The notes: a model not told the origin generated them from the sequence alone. 64,000 bases of DNA from Iphione sp. A-MEVVRFRX5 (GCA_976226885.1 OZ320317.1:59706001-59770000), one strand, 5' to 3'; numbered from the stretch's first letter, positions 10,911-63,999 are shown. Numbers and translations: made by a program.

Positions 10911-11350
10911 ATGGCCCGTGTTTTCGTGAGAAGTACATTATATAGAGAAAGTGACAGTGAAAGGGCATTGTTAGCTATGTTTCCTTCAGAAAGGAACATA
11001 TTTCATTTCCTCACTTTTCCTTATACCGCCTCATCAGTTTTGCCCTTTTTCGCCCAAGTTTCCATGAAATATGGCATTTTCTGCTGCATTTCCATGAATT
11101 TTGAGTTTTTTTGGCTGAGTTTCCATGAAATATGCCATTTTCTTTCATTTTTAAGAATAGTTTGCCTGATATATGATTTGTATCAGTCGAATTTGGTTGT
11201 AATGTTTTGTTTATTTCTGGGGTTTTTATGTGTTTTCATGCCCCAAAACATCATGCACATGTTAACACTGTAACCATCTTTAATGTTTGTACAGTCGTTA
11301 TAGGATTTTTAAAAAGCACGGCCTTAGAAACACCGCCTATGCCTACACGT
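10911..11350. repeat. Older dispersed repeat, interrupted by the LTR element (appears to continue from 14334)
   Basis: ggctgagtttccatgaaatatgccattttct...tttgcctgatat...cagtcgaatttgg is homologous to 34910-35000; tttcctcacttttcc recurs inverted near 26830; catggaaacccagcctaat (14341) resembles catgggaatccagcctaat (35460). Confidence 0.6.
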
Positions 11351-11949
11351 TGTAACGTTTTGGAGTTTGATAAGAGCATTCTGGAATGTTCTGTTTTGGT
11401 TCCCAGCTGATTACTGGTACAAGACCTCGATTTTCACTTTGTTGTGACTTAATTATCAGTGAAAAAACTACTCCTGATGGGAGGGGGACTCCTGGAGCGT
11501 TGGGACTGATCATTAAGTGTGAAGGGGTTTCCCTTATTTAATATTAACTGTTGTTCTGTCTTAATTGCTTCATATATTATTATTCTACTCTTATAAATAA
11601 ACTCTGACTCCATTATGTGGATCAATCAGTTTATCTCTCTTACAAACTCTGACTCCATTATGTGGATCAGTCGGTTTGTTTCTCCTTTGTGTATATAATG
11701 TATACATGCTCTCGAGCCTCAGACATGAGCTCGTCGGTTATTTTCGGAAACGGTGATGTCACGATGACGTCGCATATGACTTCATGTCTGGTTTTGTTGT
11801 ATATAAGATTGGAATAAACTCTTCAGGATTCATTCTGCTAGAATCCACCACGCTGTGATCTGCATCTCGACTTAGCCTTGGTTCTTTCATATGGCTTCCA
11901 AAAGTCTTGAAAGAGGGGACGTGAACTCGCACCTTACTGGGAGGTAACA
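11351..11949 (+). repeat. 5' LTR (599 bp)
   Basis: TGTAACG...GGTAACA; contains a 45-bp-period internal duplication (aaactctgactccattatgtggatca at 11599 and 11644), a TATA-like gtatataag and AATAAA. Confidence 0.95.
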
Positions 11950-11951
11950 TT

Positions 11952-11969
11952 TAGCGACCCGGACGAGAC
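11952..11969 (+). other. Primer binding site, tRNA-Arg-like
   Basis: tagcgacccggacgagac, 2 nt after the LTR; 14/18 match to the complement of a recalled vertebrate tRNA-Arg(CCG) 3' end (TGGCGACCCAGATGGGAC). Confidence 0.65.
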
Positions 11970-12353
11970 TCTGTTTTACAGAGGGAGAACGAGACTATGT
12001 TCTTAGGAGAGCATATGAGACTCTGTCCTAGGGAGCATGGACAGGACAATGTTCTAAGGAGAACGGACAGGACCATGTCCTATGGATAGGGGACGGGATG
12101 ATGTCCCTCAGAGATGTGACGAGATGACAAGATGAACACCAAAGGAGTTGGGGCGCTGCAGTACCAAATGAGGTGCTCCCCACTTTTGAGGTGTTGGTGC
12201 GGTGACTGTTTGCAGTGATGGTAAGATAGGAGAAAACTTTCTATTTCTGTTTCTGGTGTGTATTTATGGTGTGCAAAAATGGTACAGGATAGGGAGGTAG
12301 TTTTTGTTGATGCAACTGAGCAGTGGAAGGAAAACTCTCGAAATATGTTAGTA

Positions 12354-12704
12354 ATGGATGAGGAGAACAGAGCTCGACAAGACGATGAAATTTTGGCCCT
12401 TGCCTCCATTTATGGAAATAATTGGAGTGTAATAAATGAAGTAGGACGAATTTATTGTGTCACGGTATCTGCCAGAAGGGTAGATCGAGTCCTGACTGTA
12501 AAACTTGAGGTAGAGTTTATTCCTGAATATCCTGCGACAGCTTCACCTTTTTATCTGTTAAAAGTTCCATGGATGCGGGATGATCAGAGGACCACGTTGG
12601 AAAGTATGTTAAAGGACACATTCTGTGCCCATATGGGGGAAGTTATTGTCTTTTTGTGGGTAGAGGGAATCCGTGACTATCTGTACCAGTTGGTAGGGGC
12701 ATAA
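12354..12704 (+). CDS. IMPACT: Intronless IMPACT-like RWD domain (116 aa) inside the LTR element
   Basis: MDEENRARQDDEILALASIYGNNWSVINEVGRIYCVTV...KLEVEFIPEYPATASPFYLLKVPWMRDDQRTTLESMLKDTFCAHMGEVIVFLWVEGIRDYL aligns end to end with recalled human IMPACT 1-~115 (QNEEIEAMAAIYGEEWCVID...EYPGTAPPIYQLNAPWL...GESILYLWVEKIRDVL). Frame is intact; upstream in-frame ATGs at 12279 and 12345; stop falls right after the domain. Confidence 0.9.
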   Translation: MDEENRARQDDEILALASIYGNNWSVINEVGRIYCVTVSARRVDRVLTVKLEVEFIPEYPATASPFYLLKVPWMRDDQRTTLESMLKDTFCAHMGEVIVFLWVEGIRDYLYQLVGA

Positions 12705-13726
12705 GTTTGGCACACAGTAGTTTGTTATCCAGAAACAGAATGATGAAAGTTAGGCACATCGTACTCGCAATCCTTTCAACATGCCAACTTTCGAGTGTTA
12801 GGCAGTCATTTCAAGTGAGTGACTGGTGCCTAAAGGGAAGCTCGAAGAAGTAATCAAAGGAGCCTAAGTGGAACGTGCTCAGTAACAAAATTGTAGGTAG
12901 GAGTGAATACGCTTGCGCATGGAGTGCATGGAGCGTACCCCGCTGGGATCATGCTGGGAGCACAGGAGGGTCCAAAGGCTGGTTGTTTGGTTTAGACAGG
13001 CAAGTCTATGGCATATAGTTGTATAGGAGGAGTAGCTTTGACCAGGGAGATGTCAGGCTACATATTTTCCGATGATGGATTGCGTCGGGCCAAGGAGTTC
13101 AACAGCGGTTTGCAGTAGAAATACCCAGGCCTTCAATAAAGGTTGTTCGCAGATCTTCACGTCTTCTGTGGGCTACAGCTCCAGTTTCATCGACCCATCG
13201 TAAGGGACGTCTTCGCGGAATGGGTAGTTGGTGTCTTCTCTGTGACTGAGAGATGGACTCTGCTGCTGACAATTAGTATTTCTTCTCCACCACCCAGTGA
13301 ACATTAGAAGTATTTAGTAAAATACATGGAGAGATGCATATCTGTAAACGTCTTTGTCTTGAGGTATTTTGTAACTGAGAAGAATGCTTATGAACTTGGT
13401 ATTTGTTGAATATATCTTACTTTGTTTTGCCTGTGATCAAGATGAAAGTGTCTGATGTGTTATATTTATGGTTGTAAGTAGGAGCAATACTTACGTATGT
13501 GTTGACAGAGTTACATCGAATTTAAACAAACATTGCTCGGGTTTTGTTAATGAAGAGTGTTTGATTTAAAGAGGTTGGTGTCAAAGTAAGTAATCAGTCT
13601 GAACCAAAAAGGGATGAACAATGTGGGAAGGTATGCCACGCTAACTAACACCATTAACTTTACTAACGGGTAACCTAGCTTAAGGCGTAACATGCATGCT
13701 GGCTTTTTATCCTCAAAAGCTTTTTT

Positions 13727-13738
13727 GAGGGGGAGGAA
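13727..13738 (+). other. Polypurine tract
   Basis: gagggggaggaa directly abutting the TG of the 3' LTR; overlapped by an 8-bp-stem hairpin cctcaaaa-gctt-ttttgagg (13711-13730). Confidence 0.85.
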
Positions 13739-14333
13739 TGTAACGTTTTGGAGTTTGATAAGAGCATTCTGGAATGTTCTGTTTTGGTTCCCAGCTGATT
13801 ACTGGTACAAGACCTCGATTTTCACTTTGTTGTGACTTAATTATCAGTGAAACAACTACTCCTGATGGGAGGGGGACTCCTGGAGCGTTGGGACTGATCA
13901 TTAAGTGTGAAGGGGTTTCCCTTATTTAATATTAACTGTTGTTCTGTCTTAATTGCTTCATATATTATTATTCTACTCTTATAAATAAACTCTGACTCCA
14001 TTATGTGGATCAATCAGTTTATCTCTCTTACAAACTCTGACTCCATTATGTGGATCAGTCGGTTTGTTTCTCCTTTGTGTATATAATGTATGCTCTCGAG
14101 CCTCAGACGTGAGCTCGTCGGTTATTTTCGGAAACGGTGATGTCACGATGACGTCACATATGACTTCATGTCTGGTTTTGTTGTATATAAGATTGGAATA
14201 AACTCTTCAGGATTCATTCTGCTAGAATCTACCACGCTGTGATCTGCATCTCGACTTAGCCTTGGTTCTTTCATATGGCTTCCAAAAGTCTTGAAACAGG
14301 GGACGTGAACTCGCACCTAACTGGGAGGTAACA
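13739..14333 (+). repeat. 3' LTR (595 bp)
   Basis: Differs from the 5' LTR by 6 substitutions and one 4-bp indel by eye. Confidence 0.95.
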
Positions 14334-17300
14334 ACGTGCACATGGAAACCCAGCCTAATTTTCATGTATGTGTGTAGCATGTTCGGTGGCTGTGCGGCAC
14401 CATGAGCATATTCATCAGGTATAATCTCAGTAGATAACCATAGTTTCCATGGAAAACACGCCCTCACAGCTGTGAAATATAGTGGGACATTTCCCAATCT
14501 GGAAACATACTATACAGTACAAACTACATGCGTGCAAGGAAGCAACCCGTCCTGAAAACAGATCACCCACAGCTGTGCAAACGCGTATACATGGGAATCA
14601 AGCTTATGATGCAGCCAAACAGCAGCACTTTAAATTTAGTTGAAAAAAGGTTCAAAGAACGCATCGCTATAGGTGGCAATTTAGTAAGCACACCATGGGT
14701 TCAGATCTTTCACAAATCAAGCCTATTACCATACTAAGTAGCTCTAAAAGCATAGCCCATCTACATCAGTTAACAGTCATGGGAAATCTAGAACCCCAGT
14801 AGCAAGGCGGTGCTCATGGACATCAATCAAGTTTACCTTTACATTGCGGCAGAAAGCGAACGGAGGAAAAAACGACGATTACAAAAAGACTATAAACACA
14901 TTGTATAAATCAGCACCTGTTATGCTACATGTTTTAAATATCAACTTCAATGGGGGGGTCGGAAAATGTTTCCTTCAGAGGCATTTACCATATATTTATT
15001 TAACGGAACGGGGGGGGGGGATCCCGTGGCCTTCCCGAATGCCACATGTATACAGTGCGTACTATAATACATTTTTCCCACCCCGAATCAATACGGCCAA
15101 CGATAGATAGTTAAGTATATGTGCTTGGCCAGATTATTTCTGGATAAGGTAAGACAAGAAGTTGTACATGCTCAGGTGTAAAACGAGTGCAGCACCCAAG
15201 CAAACCGAGGAATCCGGAGACTGGGTCATTCCGCTCTGTAAAAAGCGCTGACATTCGCTGTCATTCCCCATGCTTTGGATTTACAGCAAAGATCTACATT
15301 TCACATAACTTCATCTGTGAAAGAAAGAAATTTCTCTTTATCATTCCTATACCTCTTTAAGAGAACGCAAATGAATTGGGAATCGAGGCAAAAGGACACA
15401 ATGAACCCGAAGAGTCGGTAATGGTACATAAATTTCTAGGTGGCCCGTACAGAAATGAACAACCACAATATTCAAGCACGAGAAATATCTAAGAGAATGC
15501 ACGTACGGGAAACATAAGAACACCATCTGCTTTGATATACACCTGAGTCAGTTTGTCTTCTCATCCGACCTATATGTATTTTGATGCAATGTCAGGTAAA
15601 ATGACTGCAATGACCCACATTGTCAAGGGTCTCTTCGGATCGTTCGATTCCCTACATTGGTACTGAATACCTGCTTTTTTCACCGTTGGCACAAAGCGTT
15701 CATTCTTTGTAGCTAAATATATCCTGAATCTCATCCCCAGCATTCCGTTTTGAATACCTATTGTGGCCAGTAGTGAATAATAGAACGACGTATTAAGAAG
15801 TGCTAGAAACGAAATCCTTCACGGCTGGCGCATGAATATTTAAACAGGAAACGTAAGAAAACCGAATTACGAGTGCTGGCGAGAGTAAATAAGCGCCCGT
15901 GAAAATCAGCTAAATGAATTAAAGGCTACACTAATGAAAGAGTGTTATTTGTGGTAATCTAGGAGTTGTTTCGAATCGATTCAAATTCTGACGTTCGGAT
16001 TAAACCAACAGAAAATAAAGGAGGGCGAAGAATGTCACTTGGCAGCATTCAGTATCCATCCCAAAATTTCTGACACTTTCGAACTGCCGTCATTGTCTGT
16101 GGACGTATATTTATTGGGCTGAAGCTTAGCAGCCATATCAGAGGTGATGTTATAGCAAGCACGAGGACAGTTGCCTCTTCTACGTTCTAGAGTGGAGACG
16201 TACGCCTGGGGCTGTTCTGCCCTTGGGAATCACCCACAGAGGCCATTATGTGCTATCTTCACTCCACTGAACGCACACCCGCCATATATTTATGTGTGTT
16301 TGTGTATGTGTGTACGCGTGTTGGTACAATTCTCATGAGTGATAAACCTACGACTGCCCGTGACTGGCGACTGTCTCCACTCTGAAAACAGTGCACATAG
16401 TATGACAGGTCTTCTTGGGACAACTCCCTAATGATGATAACATTTCGAAACGATATTGTACCCGTATTTCAGGTGATAATTAGCATCTTTTTTTTTCTAA
16501 ATGTAACAACCATACTACACCAACGATTTTCATTTTCGAGTCACCCCGGATGGCATTACCATGAGAGGCATTGTTATTTTGTGGTTATTGCATTCATGCG
16601 GGTCGGAGCTGGTGCTATTCTTTTTTCATTTTGTACCGTTAGCTGTAAATACAGCATCACAAATCGCATATCTGAAATGGTTCCGAGATGCAGAACGTAA
16701 CAGATGCGCATCTAGCCTAACAACGCGGAAGTCGCGACGTTTCCTGAGAGCGCACATCCGGAGTTTCCTCCCGTTTGATTGGTTGCTACAAGCATGATTC
16801 ATCTCGGCGTCTTAGCTAGACGCTGTCGGTGTCCACTGAAATATTCACCGATGAAATAACACATGACCTGACGTGCATGTGTCGTTAGGAAGCGGATGGA
16901 AAAAAAACTATCGCTGGTAGAATGTGGTTCTGCATAAAAATGATGGAATACAACTCTGCTAGTACTCTTGATGAGGGCATTTCAAAAACATAACCAAAAA
17001 TTATTAAATGGGACTTTCTATAATAGCTATAAGAGGACTGTGTGTATAAATACGTGTATAACAGAACGTAGCAAATATATGGAGTAAACAGACAATGAGG
17101 CTGCCTCTACTACGTACACCCAACATAGGTATCTGTGGCCAGATTTATATATTCTTACATGCACATGTATACAGGTTTCAACCAAGCACATACAATATTT
17201 TTTCGACAAAACTTTTCACTTCTTGCATATCTATCACACCCTCACATAACTGGACTGGGTGATTAAGTCACGTCTTTCTTCGCATTTGTTTCAATACAGA

Positions 17301-58665: not shown

Positions 58666-61419
58666 TCATCGTAGGGATACCGTCCACACCTCCTTCAGAT
58701 TGGCGACAACACAGTCGCCGTCGCGGGACTGGTCCCAGGTGGTCAACCTGCGCATGGCAGTGCCCCTAGTGAGGTTCTCAAACCTCTGCGCGTGCCAACG
58801 CATTAGCTCTGCTGAGCCTAGTTGGTCCGGCCCCCTCGGCCGGAAACGAATACTCTGGTTGAGAGTCAGCTTCACCTGATTTCCCCCCAACGCCTGGACT
58901 TCCGATCTCCCTGATGCTCGTACGATCTCCCAGCCCTCGGGAGGTGTGGACTGGCAGGAGACGAAGCGTCCCGCCGCCCACACGTACACTTCCTCTGGTA
59001 CTCCGGTTTCTTCGGGCGAGGGTGGGGAGATGTCCTGGTAGGACCAATATTGCGTGGGGGACCGAACGCCCGATGGCAGCCACGGCTGTCCAGCCCCTCG
59101 TCCAAGGCCCGGCGACGACAAGGGGAGTACCCGCGCTGTAGGAGATATGGCTCCTCGTGCCAGGTTCGGCAGGGACGCCCGTCTCTGCAAACGGGGGCCT
59201 GGGGGTGTCCAGCGTGGGGGTGCATCTCCGGAGGGGCCAGGCCGTAGGGGGCGGTCGACGAGGGCCTCCACATTCACACTGTGCACCTGTAGCGGTCCTC
59301 GAGGCGGCGGCACCGCGCCGGCCCCAGGGGCAACTGGCGGCGCCAGTTCCACATTGAAGTCCCTGGGGGGAGGCTCGTGGTCGGGCGCTACCCTGGGTCC
59401 TCCTTCGGCGGTACGGGGTGATCTTGGCGAGCCAGGGGCTGGTTCGAGCTGCCCCGTCTCGTCCTCACGGTCGACAGGTGGCGGCACTCCCGGTCGCTCT
59501 CCAGCTACACCATGGGCTGGCTCGAGCCGCCCGACGACGTTGGTGTCTCCGTTCCTTTCGCCAGTCACCAGCCCGGCGATGACGGGAGGGTTCACCGCGG
59601 GGGGTGTACGTAGCGGGGCCACCGGAACGGCTTCCTCCGATGGCGCTGGTGATGCACTTCCGGTCCCCGTCTCCTCCCGGTCTGGAGCCCCAGGTGGGGG
59701 ACCCGCTGGGCGTGCCAGCAGACCCGTTGCGGAGGAGCCTAGTGAGGGGGACGTAGGCCCGGCCTCTTCCTGGTGGACCGTCAGGGGTCTGCCGACCCCC
59801 ACCCCTGCGTCGCTGGAGACGTCCTGAGGCTCAGTATCCTCCTCAATTGGCGTGAGTCCGCGGCCCGGCCCCCCTGGCGGGGTCACTGCGGAAGCACCTC
59901 TCTGGTCCGACGGCGAGGTGGTCTGTTGGTCCGCTGGGAGCTTTGGAGGCGGCGGGGTGGATGTGTCATCCCGACCTGACGTACTATGCTGGGAGAGGCT
60001 GGCCAGGGTAACCGCGGCCTCCTCCTCTAAGCTTGGCAATTCATCGGAACTGATGTCCTCGACCCAGAAGGAGGTGCCCAGGGTCTCGGCGAACACTCTC
60101 CTTATGGGGCTGATGTCAACCGCGTCGTCCTTCTTGCTGGAAGACCCTGGTGTCGAGGGGGCGGACGCTGCCACCTCCCCTCCGGGGGTCATCTCGCCTT
60201 CCGTGGAGCGGGTTTCACTCCCCGGTCGCTTCCGGGGGAGGGGAGGGGAGTCCTCTGGTGAATCGGAAATAACCACTGGTTGGGACGGCGAGGCCTCCCT
60301 GGACCAGCCTGGTCCAAGGCGGCGGTCTAGGTCTTCCTCAGTGTCCGTGGCTGACCCACGACCCAGCTTGAACGGCGGTTGCCCTGGCCGCGATGACTTG
60401 GATGGGGGCGCTTTCCCTTTTCCTTTTCCGTACGATTTCGTCGCAGCAGGTCCCTTGCCTTTACCTGTCCCCGCGCGGCCTTGATGACGTGTTGCTGCTC
60501 GTCCTCTGCCCGGCGAATACACGGCGTAAGGGGGTTGGGCTGTCGGTCCCGGGGAGGGGCGCGCCGGGGTGGCCCCTTCCTCTTTGCCCTCCTCGACCCC
60601 TGCCTGGGGGGGGGTGTACGACCGCCGCTCACCGGACCCCCGGTCAGCTGGTAGGTTGATCCCTTTTGGGGTTGGGACAAGGGGGAGGGCCCGCGCACAC
60701 GTGGTCGGACGGTCTTTAGGGGCCCTGGCGTAGGTCCGTGGCCGCATCCTCTCTGGCGGTGAAGCCGACCCTCTGCTGGTTCCGGGTCGGCTGCCTGGCG
60801 ATGGTCCGGCCTCGGAGGTAGATCCATGCCCCGGCGTCTCAGACTGGGAATCGGCCGACCCGGCTGACGCGGAAGTAGGCGGCCCCTTGCTGCCCGCGGA
60901 GCTGCTGGGGGTAGCCGGGGCGGAGCGGTCGGTGCCGAGTCGGCGGCGGGCTCGGCGGGCCGATGGGCGCGAGGGTCGAGGGGGTGCTTCCTCGCCTGAC
61001 TCGGCGTCCTCGTCCGAGGACTCAACGACCTCCGCCCTGAGGTCCTTGGTTCTGGCAGTGGCCTCGCGACGGCGCCGCCTGGCCAGTTCTGTCCGCTTGT
61101 CCTCAGGGCAGTCGATAGCGACCCCACGGGTGGGGTTGAACCCCGAGAATCGCACGTAGCGGATGTCCACTGTCTGTGTCATCTGGAGGGATCGGTGTAC
61201 CCCCAGAAGGTGCCGTTTCCAGTCCGTTCGTCTGCGGAAGGCAGTGTTCTTGCACGTTTGGACGGGGCAAATCCAGCCGAACCCCTTAGGGCTGTGCACC
61301 TGCTCCATATGGCGTCGTAGATTTTGCTTCTGTTGGAAACCAGTATCGCACAGATGACATGCGAATGGAGCGGTGGCGAGGGGTACTTCCCCGGAGGCAG
61401 TGGGGGTCTGCTCTGCCAT
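58666..61419 (-). CDS. Putative separately expressed ORF3 (917 aa): two C2H2 zinc fingers, Pro/Ser/Gly-rich region and a C-terminal domain
   Basis: ATG in good context (gtgATGG) 5 nt after a strong acceptor (ctgtcgcttgtctgtttccag, AG at 61426-61425). Fingers FACHLCDTGFQQKQNLRRHMEQVH and WICPVQTCKNTAFRRRTDWKRHLLGVH (61195-61365); Arg-rich patches; no signal peptide or transmembrane segment seen. Confidence 0.6.
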   Translation of the reverse strand: MAEQTPTASGEVPLATAPFACHLCDTGFQQKQNLRRHMEQVHSPKGFGWICPVQTCKNTAFRRRTDWKRHLLGVHRSLQMTQTVDIRYVRFSGFNPTRGVAIDCPEDKRTELARRRRREATARTKDLRAEVVESSDEDAESGEEAPPRPSRPSARRARRRLGTDRSAPATPSSSAGSKGPPTSASAGSADSQSETPGHGSTSEAGPSPGSRPGTSRGSASPPERMRPRTYARAPKDRPTTCARALPLVPTPKGINLPADRGSGERRSYTPPQAGVEEGKEEGATPARPSPGPTAQPPYAVYSPGRGRAATRHQGRAGTGKGKGPAATKSYGKGKGKAPPSKSSRPGQPPFKLGRGSATDTEEDLDRRLGPGWSREASPSQPVVISDSPEDSPPLPRKRPGSETRSTEGEMTPGGEVAASAPSTPGSSSKKDDAVDISPIRRVFAETLGTSFWVEDISSDELPSLEEEAAVTLASLSQHSTSGRDDTSTPPPPKLPADQQTTSPSDQRGASAVTPPGGPGRGLTPIEEDTEPQDVSSDAGVGVGRPLTVHQEEAGPTSPSLGSSATGLLARPAGPPPGAPDREETGTGSASPAPSEEAVPVAPLRTPPAVNPPVIAGLVTGERNGDTNVVGRLEPAHGVAGERPGVPPPVDREDETGQLEPAPGSPRSPRTAEGGPRVAPDHEPPPRDFNVELAPPVAPGAGAVPPPRGPLQVHSVNVEALVDRPLRPGPSGDAPPRWTPPGPRLQRRASLPNLARGAISPTARVLPLSSPGLGRGAGQPWLPSGVRSPTQYWSYQDISPPSPEETGVPEEVYVWAAGRFVSCQSTPPEGWEIVRASGRSEVQALGGNQVKLTLNQSIRFRPRGPDQLGSAELMRWHAQRFENLTRGTAMRRLTTWDQSRDGDCVVANLKEVWTVSLR

Positions 61420-63999
61420 CACTGCTGGAAACAGACAAGCGACAGTGTAAGTCAAGGGTCTATACGTTGTAGGTGCGGTGGCGGCGATAGAACTCCGCAG
61501 CGGCGTAGCATATGCCGCTGCGGCCTCAACGTACGGGTGTTTAGCTTTAGAACTCCGCAGCTGATTTTTACTTGCTGCTGCGGCGTGCAGCTTCGACCTA
61601 TCTTTAGAACTCCGCAACAGAGGTTTACTTGCTGCTGCGGCGTGCAGCTTCGACCTATCTTTAGAACTCCGCAACAGAGGTTTACTTGCTGCTGCGGCGT
61701 GCGACTCCCGATTATCGCTCAATGGCCTGCACGATCGAAGGGTGGTACGAAGCCTTACCTCGCTTGAAACGTGTCCTGTAGAGGGTACGGGAGACGCTGT
61801 GTGTGGTATTTGGGTTTTTGCCCTTACTGATTCGTGCCAACTGGAATTCACAACGAAACTCGGACGATGTACTGCGGCGGACGTCTCACGCTGCGCACTC
61901 CATAGGTTGTCAGGGACGCTGGGGAGAGGGTTCCGGTCGACGGTGGCGCCTCCTATCTTGAGTGCGGGGTTAAGGCGGGCCGCATGACTGCACGTGCTGC
62001 GGAGTGCTAACTCCGCGGCGTCTAATCGTGGTGCGGCGGCAGGAAGGGCCGCATGGTCGCTCGTGCCGCAGGGCCGCAACTCCGCAGCGGCCACCGAAGT
62101 AAACGTCCCGCAGTGCGCCCTCACATCGGGCCTTTCTTGCCTTGCGCCCATCGCTGCGACATCCTCTGTTATCGCTGGCTTGAGGCGATCTGCATGCACA
62201 ACCTTCCTTCGCGTGCCTCTCCCTATCCGATAGACAACCGCAGACAGTCTCTCCTCCACCTGCCACGGGCCCTCCCACCAGCTCTGGAACTTAGGAGATA
62301 CGCCTTTCTTTTTCAGTGGGGTGAAAAGCCACACTTTCTGCCCCACCACGTACTCCTGGGGGCGCACCTTCTGGTTGTACCAGTCCTGCCGCAACTCCGC
62401 TGCCTTATTCAGCTTGCAGGCGACCCACTGGTGGGCTTCCCGGACTTCTTCTTCTACCTGCTGCACATATTCGCCTCTTTCTACAGTTGGTCCTTCAGGG
62501 TACCCATAGCGGAGCTCGGCTGGGGTAGCAACCTCCCGATGCAGGGTAAGCCAGTTAGGGGACACGCCCGTAGTGCTGTGGGGGGTGGCCCGGTATGCAG
62601 CCATGACGAAGGGGAGGGCCAAGTCCCAGTCGGCTCGCCTCTCCTCTCCCAGGGTGGCTAGCATGCTGGCGAGCGTCCTGTTGAAGCGCTCCACCACTCC
62701 GTCGGCTTGGGGGTGGTATGGTGTGGTCCTGGATTTCTCGATCCCCAGCAATCGTAGCACCTCCGCGAAGAGCTCGGCCTCGAAGTTCCTCCCCTGGTCG
62801 GAGTGCAAGGCTCTAGGGGGCCCGAAACGGCACACCACTTCCCTGACAATCACTTCGGCGGTTGCCCGAGCTGTGATTTCCGCCAGTGGGAACGCTTCTG
62901 TCCATTTAGAAAAGTGGTCCGCCACTACTAGAATGTAACGGTGTCCCCGCTCCGTGCGCGGAAGTGGCCCTAAGACGTCGGCTGCTACTAGTTCCCAGGG
63001 CTCGCTGACTTTCCGGTACTGTAGCGGTGCCCTCTTGTTGCGGTATGGCCCCTTTCTACGCTGGCACGCCTGACAAGCTTGTGTCCAGCGCAGGACGTCC
63101 CGCCGGAGTCCAGGCCAGAACCACTTAGTCTTAAGAGCGGCTCCGGTTTTCTCCGCTCCCAGGTGGCCACTCAACACCCCTTCGTGAGCCTCTCGCCAAA
63201 CCTGCTTCCTTAGACTCCTCGGTACGTATGCCTGATACACCAGTCGCGAAGGCTCTTCCTGCCAACATCGCATCAGCACCCCGTGCCGGAGACTCAACCG
63301 TCTCGCCTCGGCGCGCAGCTGGCGCTCTTCCCAGGACAACCCGGATTCGAGTCCTGGGATTTCTCTACCTTCCTCGAGTGCATCTATGATGGCGGCTACG
63401 GGCTCCTCCTCCCGCTGGGCGTCTCTCAGCTGCGGTCGATCTCCAGTTGGGTCCACGGTCACCATGGCCGTGAGCTCCCGCACCGGTTCTTCCCCCTCTT
63501 CACTACGGTGGCACTGTTTACAACGCTGGCGGGACAACCCGTCTGCATTGCCATGCTTCTTCCCGGGCCGGTGGACGATTAACAGGTCATAGCAGAATAT
63601 TTCCTCTAACCACCGCGCCAGCTGCCCCTGGGGCTCACGGAAATTGCACAGCCAGCGCAAGGAGTCGTGGTCAGTGCGTATCTCCACAGTGTGCCCTCCC
63701 ACGTAACAGCGGAACTTCCGTAATGCGAACACCACTGCCAATAATTCTCGACGAGTGACACAATAGTTCTTTTCGGGACGCGTGAGGGTCCGGCTAGCGT
63801 ACGCCAACACCCTCTCCTGTCCCTCTTGCTCTTGGGACAACACCGCGCCGATGCCCGTATCCGACGCGTCCGTGTCGATCAAGAGCCGCCCTTTTGGTTT
63901 CGGGAACCCCAGGATGGGTGCCGTCACCAACCGTTCCTTCAACTCCTCGAAGGCCACTTGGCACTGCTCTGACCACGTGAACTCGGCGTGTCGATCGGC
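58666..63999 (-). CDS. pol: Gypsy pol (RT connection, RNase H, integrase) fused in-frame to a zinc-finger/low-complexity extension
   Basis: RNase H DTDAS..ELLAV..TDH..NADGLSR (~63529-63885); integrase HHCC (HEGVLSGH..CQAC), D-D35-E (AADVLG, HSDQG, VVERFN) and GPY/F-like EGPW, ending ~62176. No stops or frameshifts. Confidence 0.95.
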   Translation of the reverse strand, partial: ADRHAEFTWSEQCQVAFEELKERLVTAPILGFPKPKGRLLIDTDASDTGIGAVLSQEQEGQERVLAYASRTLTRPEKNYCVTRRELLAVVFALRKFRCYVGGHTVEIRTDHDSLRWLCNFREPQGQLARWLEEIFCYDLLIVHRPGKKHGNADGLSRQRCKQCHRSEEGEEPVRELTAMVTVDPTGDRPQLRDAQREEEPVAAIIDALEEGREIPGLESGLSWEERQLRAEARRLSLRHGVLMRCWQEEPSRLVYQAYVPRSLRKQVWREAHEGVLSGHLGAEKTGAALKTKWFWPGLRRDVLRWTQACQACQRRKGPYRNKRAPLQYRKVSEPWELVAADVLGPLPRTERGHRYILVVADHFSKWTEAFPLAEITARATAEVIVREVVCRFGPPRALHSDQGRNFEAELFAEVLRLLGIEKSRTTPYHPQADGVVERFNRTLASMLATLGEERRADWDLALPFVMAAYRATPHSTTGVSPNWLTLHREVATPAELRYGYPEGPTVERGEYVQQVEEEVREAHQWVACKLNKAAELRQDWYNQKVRPQEYVVGQKVWLFTPLKKKGVSPKFQSWWEGPWQVEERLSAVVYRIGRGTRRKVVHADRLKPAITEDVAAMGARQERPDVRAHCGTFTSVAAAELRPCGTSDHAALPAAAPRLDAAELALRSTCSHAARLNPALKIGGATVDRNPLPSVPDNLWSAQRETSAAVHRPSFVVNSSWHESVRAKTQIPHTASPVPSTGHVSSEVRLRTTLRSCRPLSDNRESHAAAASKPLLRSSKDRSKLHAAAASKPLLRSSKDRSKLHAAAASKNQLRSSKAKHPYVEAAAAYATPLRSSIAATAPTTYRPLTYTVACLFPAVMAEQTPTASGEVPLATAPFACHLCDTGFQQKQNLRRHMEQVHSPKGFGWICPVQTCKNTAFRRRTDWKRHLLGVHRSLQMTQTVDIRYVRFSGFNPTRGVAIDCPEDKRTELARRRRREATARTKDLRAEVVESSDEDAESGEEAPPRPSRPSARRARRRLGTDRSAPATPSSSAGSKGPPTSASAGSADSQSETPGHGSTSEAGPSPGSRPGTSRGSASPPERMRPRTYARAPKDRPTTCARALPLVPTPKGINLPADRGSGERRSYTPPQAGVEEGKEEGATPARPSPGPTAQPPYAVYSPGRGRAATRHQGRAGTGKGKGPAATKSYGKGKGKAPPSKSSRPGQPPFKLGRGSATDTEEDLDRRLGPGWSREASPSQPVVISDSPEDSPPLPRKRPGSETRSTEGEMTPGGEVAASAPSTPGSSSKKDDAVDISPIRRVFAETLGTSFWVEDISSDELPSLEEEAAVTLASLSQHSTSGRDDTSTPPPPKLPADQQTTSPSDQRGASAVTPPGGPGRGLTPIEEDTEPQDVSSDAGVGVGRPLTVHQEEAGPTSPSLGSSATGLLARPAGPPPGAPDREETGTGSASPAPSEEAVPVAPLRTPPAVNPPVIAGLVTGERNGDTNVVGRLEPAHGVAGERPGVPPPVDREDETGQLEPAPGSPRSPRTAEGGPRVAPDHEPPPRDFNVELAPPVAPGAGAVPPPRGPLQVHSVNVEALVDRPLRPGPSGDAPPRWTPPGPRLQRRASLPNLARGAISPTARVLPLSSPGLGRGAGQPWLPSGVRSPTQYWSYQDISPPSPEETGVPEEVYVWAAGRFVSCQSTPPEGWEIVRASGRSEVQALGGNQVKLTLNQSIRFRPRGPDQLGSAELMRWHAQRFENLTRGTAMRRLTTWDQSRDGDCVVANLKEVWTVSLR
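61567..61702 (-). repeat. 57-bp in-frame tandem repeat (~2.4 copies) in the integrase-ORF3 linker
   Basis: tttacttgctgctgcggcgtgc starts at 61567, 61624 and 61681; encodes HAAAASKPLLRSSKDRSKL. Confidence 0.9.

Follow-up and report, generated by a model that had tools for sequence, protein, structure and literature searches.

Why should an LTR retroelement carry a piece of IMPACT as its only intact gene? The question is raised by an element at positions 11351-14333 of a 64,000-nucleotide stretch of the genome of Iphione sp. A-MEVVRFRX5 (GCA_976226885.1 OZ320317.1:59706001-59770000), here called the window. The original prediction, made from the sequence of this stretch alone, described a young element carrying the RWD domain of IMPACT, possibly as a mobile antagonist of the kinase GCN2. 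It proposed counting the copies, looking for an autonomous partner, placing the RWD in a tree with host IMPACT and computing dN/dS across copies; a single copy, a dN/dS near 1 or frameshifts in most copies were named as signs of an incidental passenger. The cargo gene proves to be real, of host origin and under selection, and it is carried by a non-autonomous family resembling errantiviruses; the analysis suggests that the element uses the stolen host protein to damp a cellular alarm.

The hallmarks of a non-autonomous Ty3/Gypsy LTR element are present, namely paired LTRs, a primer site, a polypurine tract and a short target duplication (Table 1), and the element is complete, as had been claimed, with six substitutions and one 4-nt indel separating the two LTRs. 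The primer site pairs with the 3' end of a host tRNA-Arg(TCG) gene, the mismatch in the window copy falling within the three bases that pair with CCA. Only one internal frame reaches 150 aa (12225-12704), and it matches the Pfam RWD domain with an E-value of 5.6e-16. It has two possible starts, the ATG at 12279, which is the old gag start, and the IMPACT methionine 25 codons later at 12354, giving predicted products of 141 aa and 116 aa respectively. As predicted, the frame is intact and intronless and ends with the domain: its stop, past helix 3, aligns with the last full codon of host IMPACT exon 5, the ancient UPF0029 domain is absent and RWD is the sole Pfam domain. The YPxxxP and WVExxRD motifs are likewise retained. 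Judged by its sequence, the cargo is an IMPACT-derived fragment rather than a member of the IMPACT/Yih1 family. The claim that gag and pol are missing holds in so far as neither is intact, though decayed remnants of integrase and env persist. Beyond roughly its first dozen codons the N-terminal extension is of uncertain origin; a gag match is present in an old copy, L033.

The leader of the window copy contains 14 upstream ATGs, against 3 in the leader of the helper family described below, and 9-16 were counted in each of the 23 cargo copies checked. The 26-nt leader repeats, which resemble the end of the primer site, are the source of many of these ATGs and vary in number between copies, at least 12 of 28 having an additional one.

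Table 1. Features of the element and its flanks, in window coordinates.
Feature	Position	Strand	Remarks
Left target-site duplication ACGT	11347..11350		flank sequence
5' LTR, 599 nt	11351..11949	+	87-92% identical to helper LTR over 435-576 nt
Primer-binding site, tRNA-Arg(TCG)	11952..11969	+	one mismatch in window copy; helper has same site
Three degenerate 26-nt leader repeats	12019..12096	+	
Leader homologous to helper leader, up to helper gag start codon	12135..12278	+	
25-codon N-terminal extension	12279..12353	+	start codon and about the first dozen codons align with helper gag start
IMPACT-derived RWD coding region	12354..12704	+	host exons 1-5 without introns
Decayed integrase 3'-half remnant	12750..13003	+	weak in window copy, E 5e-11 in old copy L033
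Decayed env 5'-end remnant	13191..13328	+	E 8e-4 in window copy; weak matches in many copies
Polypurine tract	13727..13738	+	common to helper
3' LTR, 595 nt	13739..14333	+	
Right target-site duplication ACGT	14334..14337		flank sequence

Host IMPACT maps to the contig that holds the element, at a distance of about 28 Mb. Its exons 2-5 (129, 53, 63 and 80 nt, with AG/GT ends) align without gaps to the cargo frame, a candidate exon 1 (MDEDNLTRQ) is identical to it at 19 of 27 nt, and the four host introns are missing from the cargo, which bears out the earlier proposal that a fragment of IMPACT mRNA was captured. The leader aligns with that of the helper up to and across the gag ATG. Since the intronless exons 1-5 sit on the gag start codon, with scraps of integrase and env behind them, a piece of spliced IMPACT mRNA replaced most of gag-pol between two junctions. 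Such a replacement is what would be expected from template switching, and the junctions suggest that an env-bearing Ty3/Gypsy element recombined long ago with the spliced mRNA during reverse transcription. The cargo is only 43-45% identical to host IMPACT (45 of 104 residues), which points to an old capture within a young insertion; the element is thus young, as predicted, with regard to its insertion, while the capture is old.

Host IMPACT is also the best match to the cargo, scoring 122 bits where none of 143 database proteins exceeds 97. A database-wide scan returned 135 RWD protein matches, the best about 40% identical and all below 50%; seven of the ten best clusters are named IMPACT and the others carry an RWD domain. 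Among 29 database matches scanned with Pfam the layout was mostly RWD plus UPF0029, and none had a retroelement domain. In a tree of 49 rows, 45 of them the database rows nearest to the host among 109, host IMPACT and the cargo are sisters (support 96/88). The cargo sits on a long branch, 0.97 against 0.18 for host IMPACT, corresponding to about five times faster evolution. A horizontal origin is not favoured, the host gene being both best match and sister in a tree without close relatives of the host. Outside the genome, a word-indexed search of proteins of near or greater length returned nothing closely related to the cargo, which is weak evidence. No viral RWD decoy was seen in viral contigs, and a viral fold library gave no match at E<=0.001. 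Eight further loci with RWD matches were fetched from the genome, none of them within a recognisable LTR pair; from their translated exons we take these to be ordinary host genes.

In the 1.18-Gb host assembly, a protein search gave 43 matches among 47 candidates: a single exon of host IMPACT, and 42 pieces distributed over 39 element loci. This number is a lower bound and makes the family multicopy. The full-length frame is open in 17 of the 39 copies, and the other 22 are broken by stops, frameshifts, insertion or truncation. Most of the stops (24 of 28) fall at codons that read CGA in the window copy, a pattern of CpG decay as expected after insertion. LTR pairs are at least 99% identical in 14 of the 24 copies for which both LTRs were at least partly recovered. 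As so many pairs are nearly identical despite an internal divergence from the window copy that reaches about 14%, several sub-lineages moved recently. Some broken copies also carry nearly identical LTR pairs. Seven copies (L015, L019-L022, L024 and L027) lie within 0.65 Mb (C4:19.2-19.85 Mb); all are truncated, six share one stop, and the cluster probably arose by local duplication rather than retrotransposition. A search with the LTR gave 331 candidates, compared with the 39 cargo loci, and many of the 20 fetched are solo LTRs or 3' fragments. L090 (C1:123.4 Mb) and L091 (C1:80.7 Mb) are older relatives of the 3' region and LTR, at 70-77% identity; the RWD was undetected in the fetched stretches of both, which seem to be cut off upstream.

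A search with the LTR end and primer site identified three elements of 7-7.5 kb (L041, L042 and L044), and a fourth, older copy (L074) was found through its pol. Their frames encode a gag with a zinc knuckle, PR-RT-RNaseH-integrase and a third protein weakly similar to baculovirus F (Pfam Baculo_F, E 4e-4 to 7e-4, below the curated cut-off; against Baculo_F clusters, Atlas 0.96 with a low recognition score, hence weak). The gag and pol frames overlap, out of frame, and in none of the four copies seen are all three frames open. The LTRs of L041, L042 and L044 are 87-92% identical to that of the cargo element and those of L074 77-81%, and all have the same tRNA-Arg primer site and the same 3' end, so that the proposed autonomous partner does exist. 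As LTR, primer site and polypurine tract are shared, the defective element is probably packaged and copied in trans by this helper family; LTR pairs at least 99% identical occur in copies of both. No autonomous element bearing the RWD was seen in the genome. A pol frame upstream of the old copy L033 is only 29% identical to helper pol and is taken to belong to a different element. The helper would appear to be an F-type env-bearing Ty3/Gypsy element of about 7.5 kb with gag, pol and env, similar to errantiviruses. Env-bearing Ty3/Gypsy elements occur across animals (PMC13524379) and, like the errantiviruses sensu lato described there, the helper has a zinc-knuckle gag, the order PR-RT-RNaseH-IN, an F-type-like env, LTRs and a tRNA primer site; the 4-bp target duplication is likewise seen in the cargo-bearing derivative. 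Unlike the errantiviruses of that paper, the cargo element is a defective derivative and carries a host cargo. The main text of the paper contains none of the words RWD, accessory and non-autonomous, though the helper may be in its supplements.

Is the cargo maintained as a protein? Selection was assessed in 29 of the 39 copies, after removal of five duplicates belonging to a single cluster and of five copies that were old or partial, with variants tallied per column rather than per event. Private variants have an N:S of 59:23, whereas variants in three or more copies have an N:S of 20:27 (Fisher p=0.0014). The private ratio equals the neutral site ratio of 2.4-2.6 (for transition ratios of 3-5), and private variant density tracks the divergence of the LTR pair (rho 0.59, p=0.0025, n=24). 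Over the three codon positions of 28 copies, shared variants are distributed 13/10/30 and private ones 35/29/32; in the same copies no shared indel falls within the ORF and several fall in the 3' region. The N:S deficit is confined to the RWD frame and to the antisense frame whose third positions coincide with those of the RWD frame. In the non-coding 3' region, six pseudo-frames have a shared N:S of 2.0-2.6; no such deficit is seen there, and the idea that the 3' kilobase hides another ORF under selection was rejected. A recombination-free codon model gave an omega of 0.47, with a log-likelihood of -1732.3 against -1747.6 at omega=1; this gap of 15.3 units is an upper bound, as the tree was fixed and kappa was set in the null, where three values were tried. 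Since the shared variants are depleted in non-synonymous changes and the private ones are neutral, selection acts while the element replicates: the cargo protein has long been under purifying selection during element replication and decays once inserted.

The comparison with the host gene reaches further back. Nucleotide identity by codon position is 56/77/32%, none of the 18 fourfold sites is identical and synonymous sites are saturated. The third-position composition of the cargo (C 0.14, T 0.33) resembles that of helper pol and env, not that of host IMPACT (C 0.28, T 0.23). Ranked from the most to the least conserved columns of the family, cargo and host are identical at 18 of 23, 19 of 39 and 8 of 42. 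These results bear on the idea that the frame is open only for RNA-level reasons, such as stability, avoidance of decay or packaging size, with a protein that has no specific role. The 22 broken copies, some with nearly identical LTR pairs, and the leader rich in upstream ATGs would be consistent with such a passenger, but an open frame alone predicts neither a deficit of amino-acid changes nor the match to columns conserved in the family, the second positions have stayed 77% identical despite synonymous saturation, and stops at CGA codons are what CpG decay after insertion would be expected to leave. Selection tests largely refute this idea, which we consider highly improbable; as for the signs of a passenger named at the outset, the family is not single-copy (at least 39 copies), omega is 0.47 rather than near 1, and frameshifts do not affect most copies.

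Selection could also have acted on the host, with the animal benefiting from dispersed LTR-driven RWD copies as a domesticated stress regulator and the element riding along. The open frame in 17 of 39 copies would agree with this. However, the private variants, which mostly arose after insertion, are neutral in aggregate, placing selection during replication and not in the genome, and a benefit to the host seems very unlikely, though the pooled test would miss one or two domesticated copies.

The predicted structure of the cargo is a confident RWD fold (mean pLDDT 94.4), the nearest solved folds being the RWD domains of GCN2 and RWDD1. The acidic residues of helix 3 are kept, E129 in 28 of 29 copies and D133 in all 29, four positions apart as in RWD proteins that bind GCN1. 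From an alignment made without Yih1, they would appear to be equivalent to Asp102 and Glu106 of Yih1 (D102/E106). Host GCN1, which was found with PF24987 and missed by PF23271, keeps a GPLIR segment that we take to hold the equivalent of Arg2259. Host GCN2 was not located by family searches with PF12745, for which the controls were silent too, or with PF13393, which returned an apparent histidyl-tRNA synthetase; neither search shows absence. In yeast, the binding of Yih1 to Gcn1 is reported to need two acidic helix-3 residues four apart (PMC4503747), and these pair with basic residues of Gcn1 (PMC9704636). Yih1 competes with Gcn2 for Gcn1, and its RWD alone, when overexpressed, inhibits the starvation response (reviewed in PMC7140605).

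Because of the selection, the identity at conserved columns, the acidic residues of helix 3, the RWD fold and the precedent of the Yih1 RWD, we favour the reading that the cargo is a GCN1 decoy that damps GCN2, and would give it slightly better than an even chance. The selection suggests that the element makes a protein consisting of the RWD only, from either of the two starts. This would occupy the RWD-binding site of GCN1 in the manner of the isolated RWD of Yih1 or IMPACT, GCN2 would stay inactive and the RNA of both element and helper would continue to be translated in the cells in which these replicate. The further idea, that a satellite retroelement pays its helper in this way, with the decoy switching off GCN2 signalling for both, is possible though somewhat doubtful; if true, the integrated stress response would truly restrict LTR retrotransposons in an animal germ line, with enough force to drive counter-defence.

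Several points count against a decoy. With so many upstream ATGs in the leaders simple scanning should be hindered, though, as speculation, a leader rich in upstream ORFs could favour translation of the decoy when eIF2-alpha is phosphorylated, making a feedback switch. A decoy that acts in trans is a shared good, so that selection on its carrier needs explaining, and the 22 broken copies of 39 and the unlocated host GCN2 were also counted against it. The restriction of retroviruses by GCN2, which had been offered as precedent, is reported for HIV-1 and MLV but is weaker for the Ty3 class, the integrase of Ty3 showing near-background phosphorylation by GCN2 (PMC5442153), so the best-documented route of restriction may not apply to Ty3/Gypsy elements. 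No report of GCN2 restricting an LTR retrotransposon was found in the open-licence full-text literature.

GCN1 also recruits other RWD proteins, e.g. RNF14, and a GCN1 decoy therefore need not act through GCN2. The cargo might displace the stall-response ligases RNF14 and RNF25 or a protein of the DFRP2/Gir2 type, or alter what GCN1 does when ribosomes collide, and in this way it could help the overlapping gag-pol junction of the helper to be decoded. The selection evidence fits this equally well, and the helper frames do overlap out of frame. RNF14 binding needs the same GCN1 arginine, and competition with GCN2 and IMPACT has been proposed (10.1101/2022.03.21.485216), while at collided ribosomes Gcn1 keeps frameshifting down in a Gcn2-independent way (10.1101/2021.08.26.457827). 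Deletion of YIH1 or GIR2 in yeast, however, barely affects frameshifting according to the latter study, and the captured domain comes from the one RWD protein best known for inhibiting GCN2, and we regard a selected effect on GCN1 apart from GCN2 as unlikely.

Helix 1 is identical to that of host IMPACT at 9 of 13 residues, and its glutamate, found in 80% of family rows, is a leucine in all 29 cargo copies. Along with the fast evolution of the cargo, this loss counts against the decoy and suggests that the cargo may now have another partner. As a fusion to the gag start, the domain might act on actin, an E2, a trafficking factor or helper Gag, for instance in packaging its own RNA or in interfering with the helper. 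The long branch, the fixed change of a conserved helix-1 residue and the gag-derived start are consistent with a changed function, IMPACT/Yih1 also binds actin and CDK1/Cdc28 (PMC4503747, PMC7140605), and a role in cis would explain selection at the level of the carrier more simply. On the other hand only about a dozen gag codons are left, with weak protein similarity, and the conservation matches the IMPACT family pattern, including the acidic residues on the surface of helix 3. Such a change of function seems to us quite unlikely.

Host sequences captured by retrotransposons are usually treated as decaying passengers. Here, over a long history of replication, purifying selection has kept the captured domain, and this suggests an accessory gene of the kind that viruses have. 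The same domain is the part of IMPACT that is sufficient to block GCN2 in yeast. If the decoy reading is true, the element would provide evolutionary evidence that GCN1/GCN2 restricts LTR elements, a GCN1 decoy would join the known ways of defeating the stress response, and the question of whether LTR elements are restricted could be put to a standard yeast assay with a single small protein.

With its source, IMPACT/Yih1 (RWD plus UPF0029), the cargo shares the fold and the conserved motifs, host IMPACT being its best match. Unlike IMPACT/Yih1 it has no linker, ancient domain or introns, starts from gag, is carried between LTRs in many copies and has diverged to 43-45% identity with the host gene. 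Defective transducing retroviruses carry spliced host coding sequence in place of gag-pol, form gag-onc fusions and need a helper. The cargo is similarly spliced, replaces gag-pol, starts at the gag initiator and probably depends on a helper, although it travels in a Gypsy element in the germ line of an invertebrate and has been kept until synonymous saturation. Poxvirus K3L and baculovirus PK2 are truncated host proteins that antagonise eIF2-alpha kinases. As the cargo may be, they are trimmed host domains serving as dominant-negative decoys in the stress response; unlike it, they mimic the substrate or the kinase and reside in large DNA viruses. Telomeric retrotransposons of Drosophila, TART-A/nxf2 and relatives, have captured host gene fragments (PMC13534243, PMC7785250), proposed to counter host control (PMC13534243). 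Those elements are non-LTR and target piRNA silencing, whereas the present evidence favours a selected protein directed at the control of translation. Every ingredient thus has a precedent, and no report of the combination, an IMPACT or RWD cargo in a transposon or virus, was found in the open-licence full-text literature.

Two further observations concern other Gypsy-like sequences. A second env-bearing Gypsy family (L094-L097, at C11:41.0 Mb, C10:12.7 Mb, C26:17.1 Mb and C4:5.4 Mb), with a pol 53-56% identical to that of the helper, has an extra frame of 330-370 aa upstream of gag; this frame has no Pfam match, and to us its start looks HMG-box-like by eye. In the window itself, an open frame of at least 1777 aa on the minus strand (58666-63999) runs off the end. 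We take it to read as the RNaseH-integrase end of a Gypsy pol. Past pol it continues in frame for about 1100 aa, a part that contains two C2H2-like zinc-finger motifs and a long region rich in proline and serine, and the GC content is 61-63% against about 43% elsewhere.
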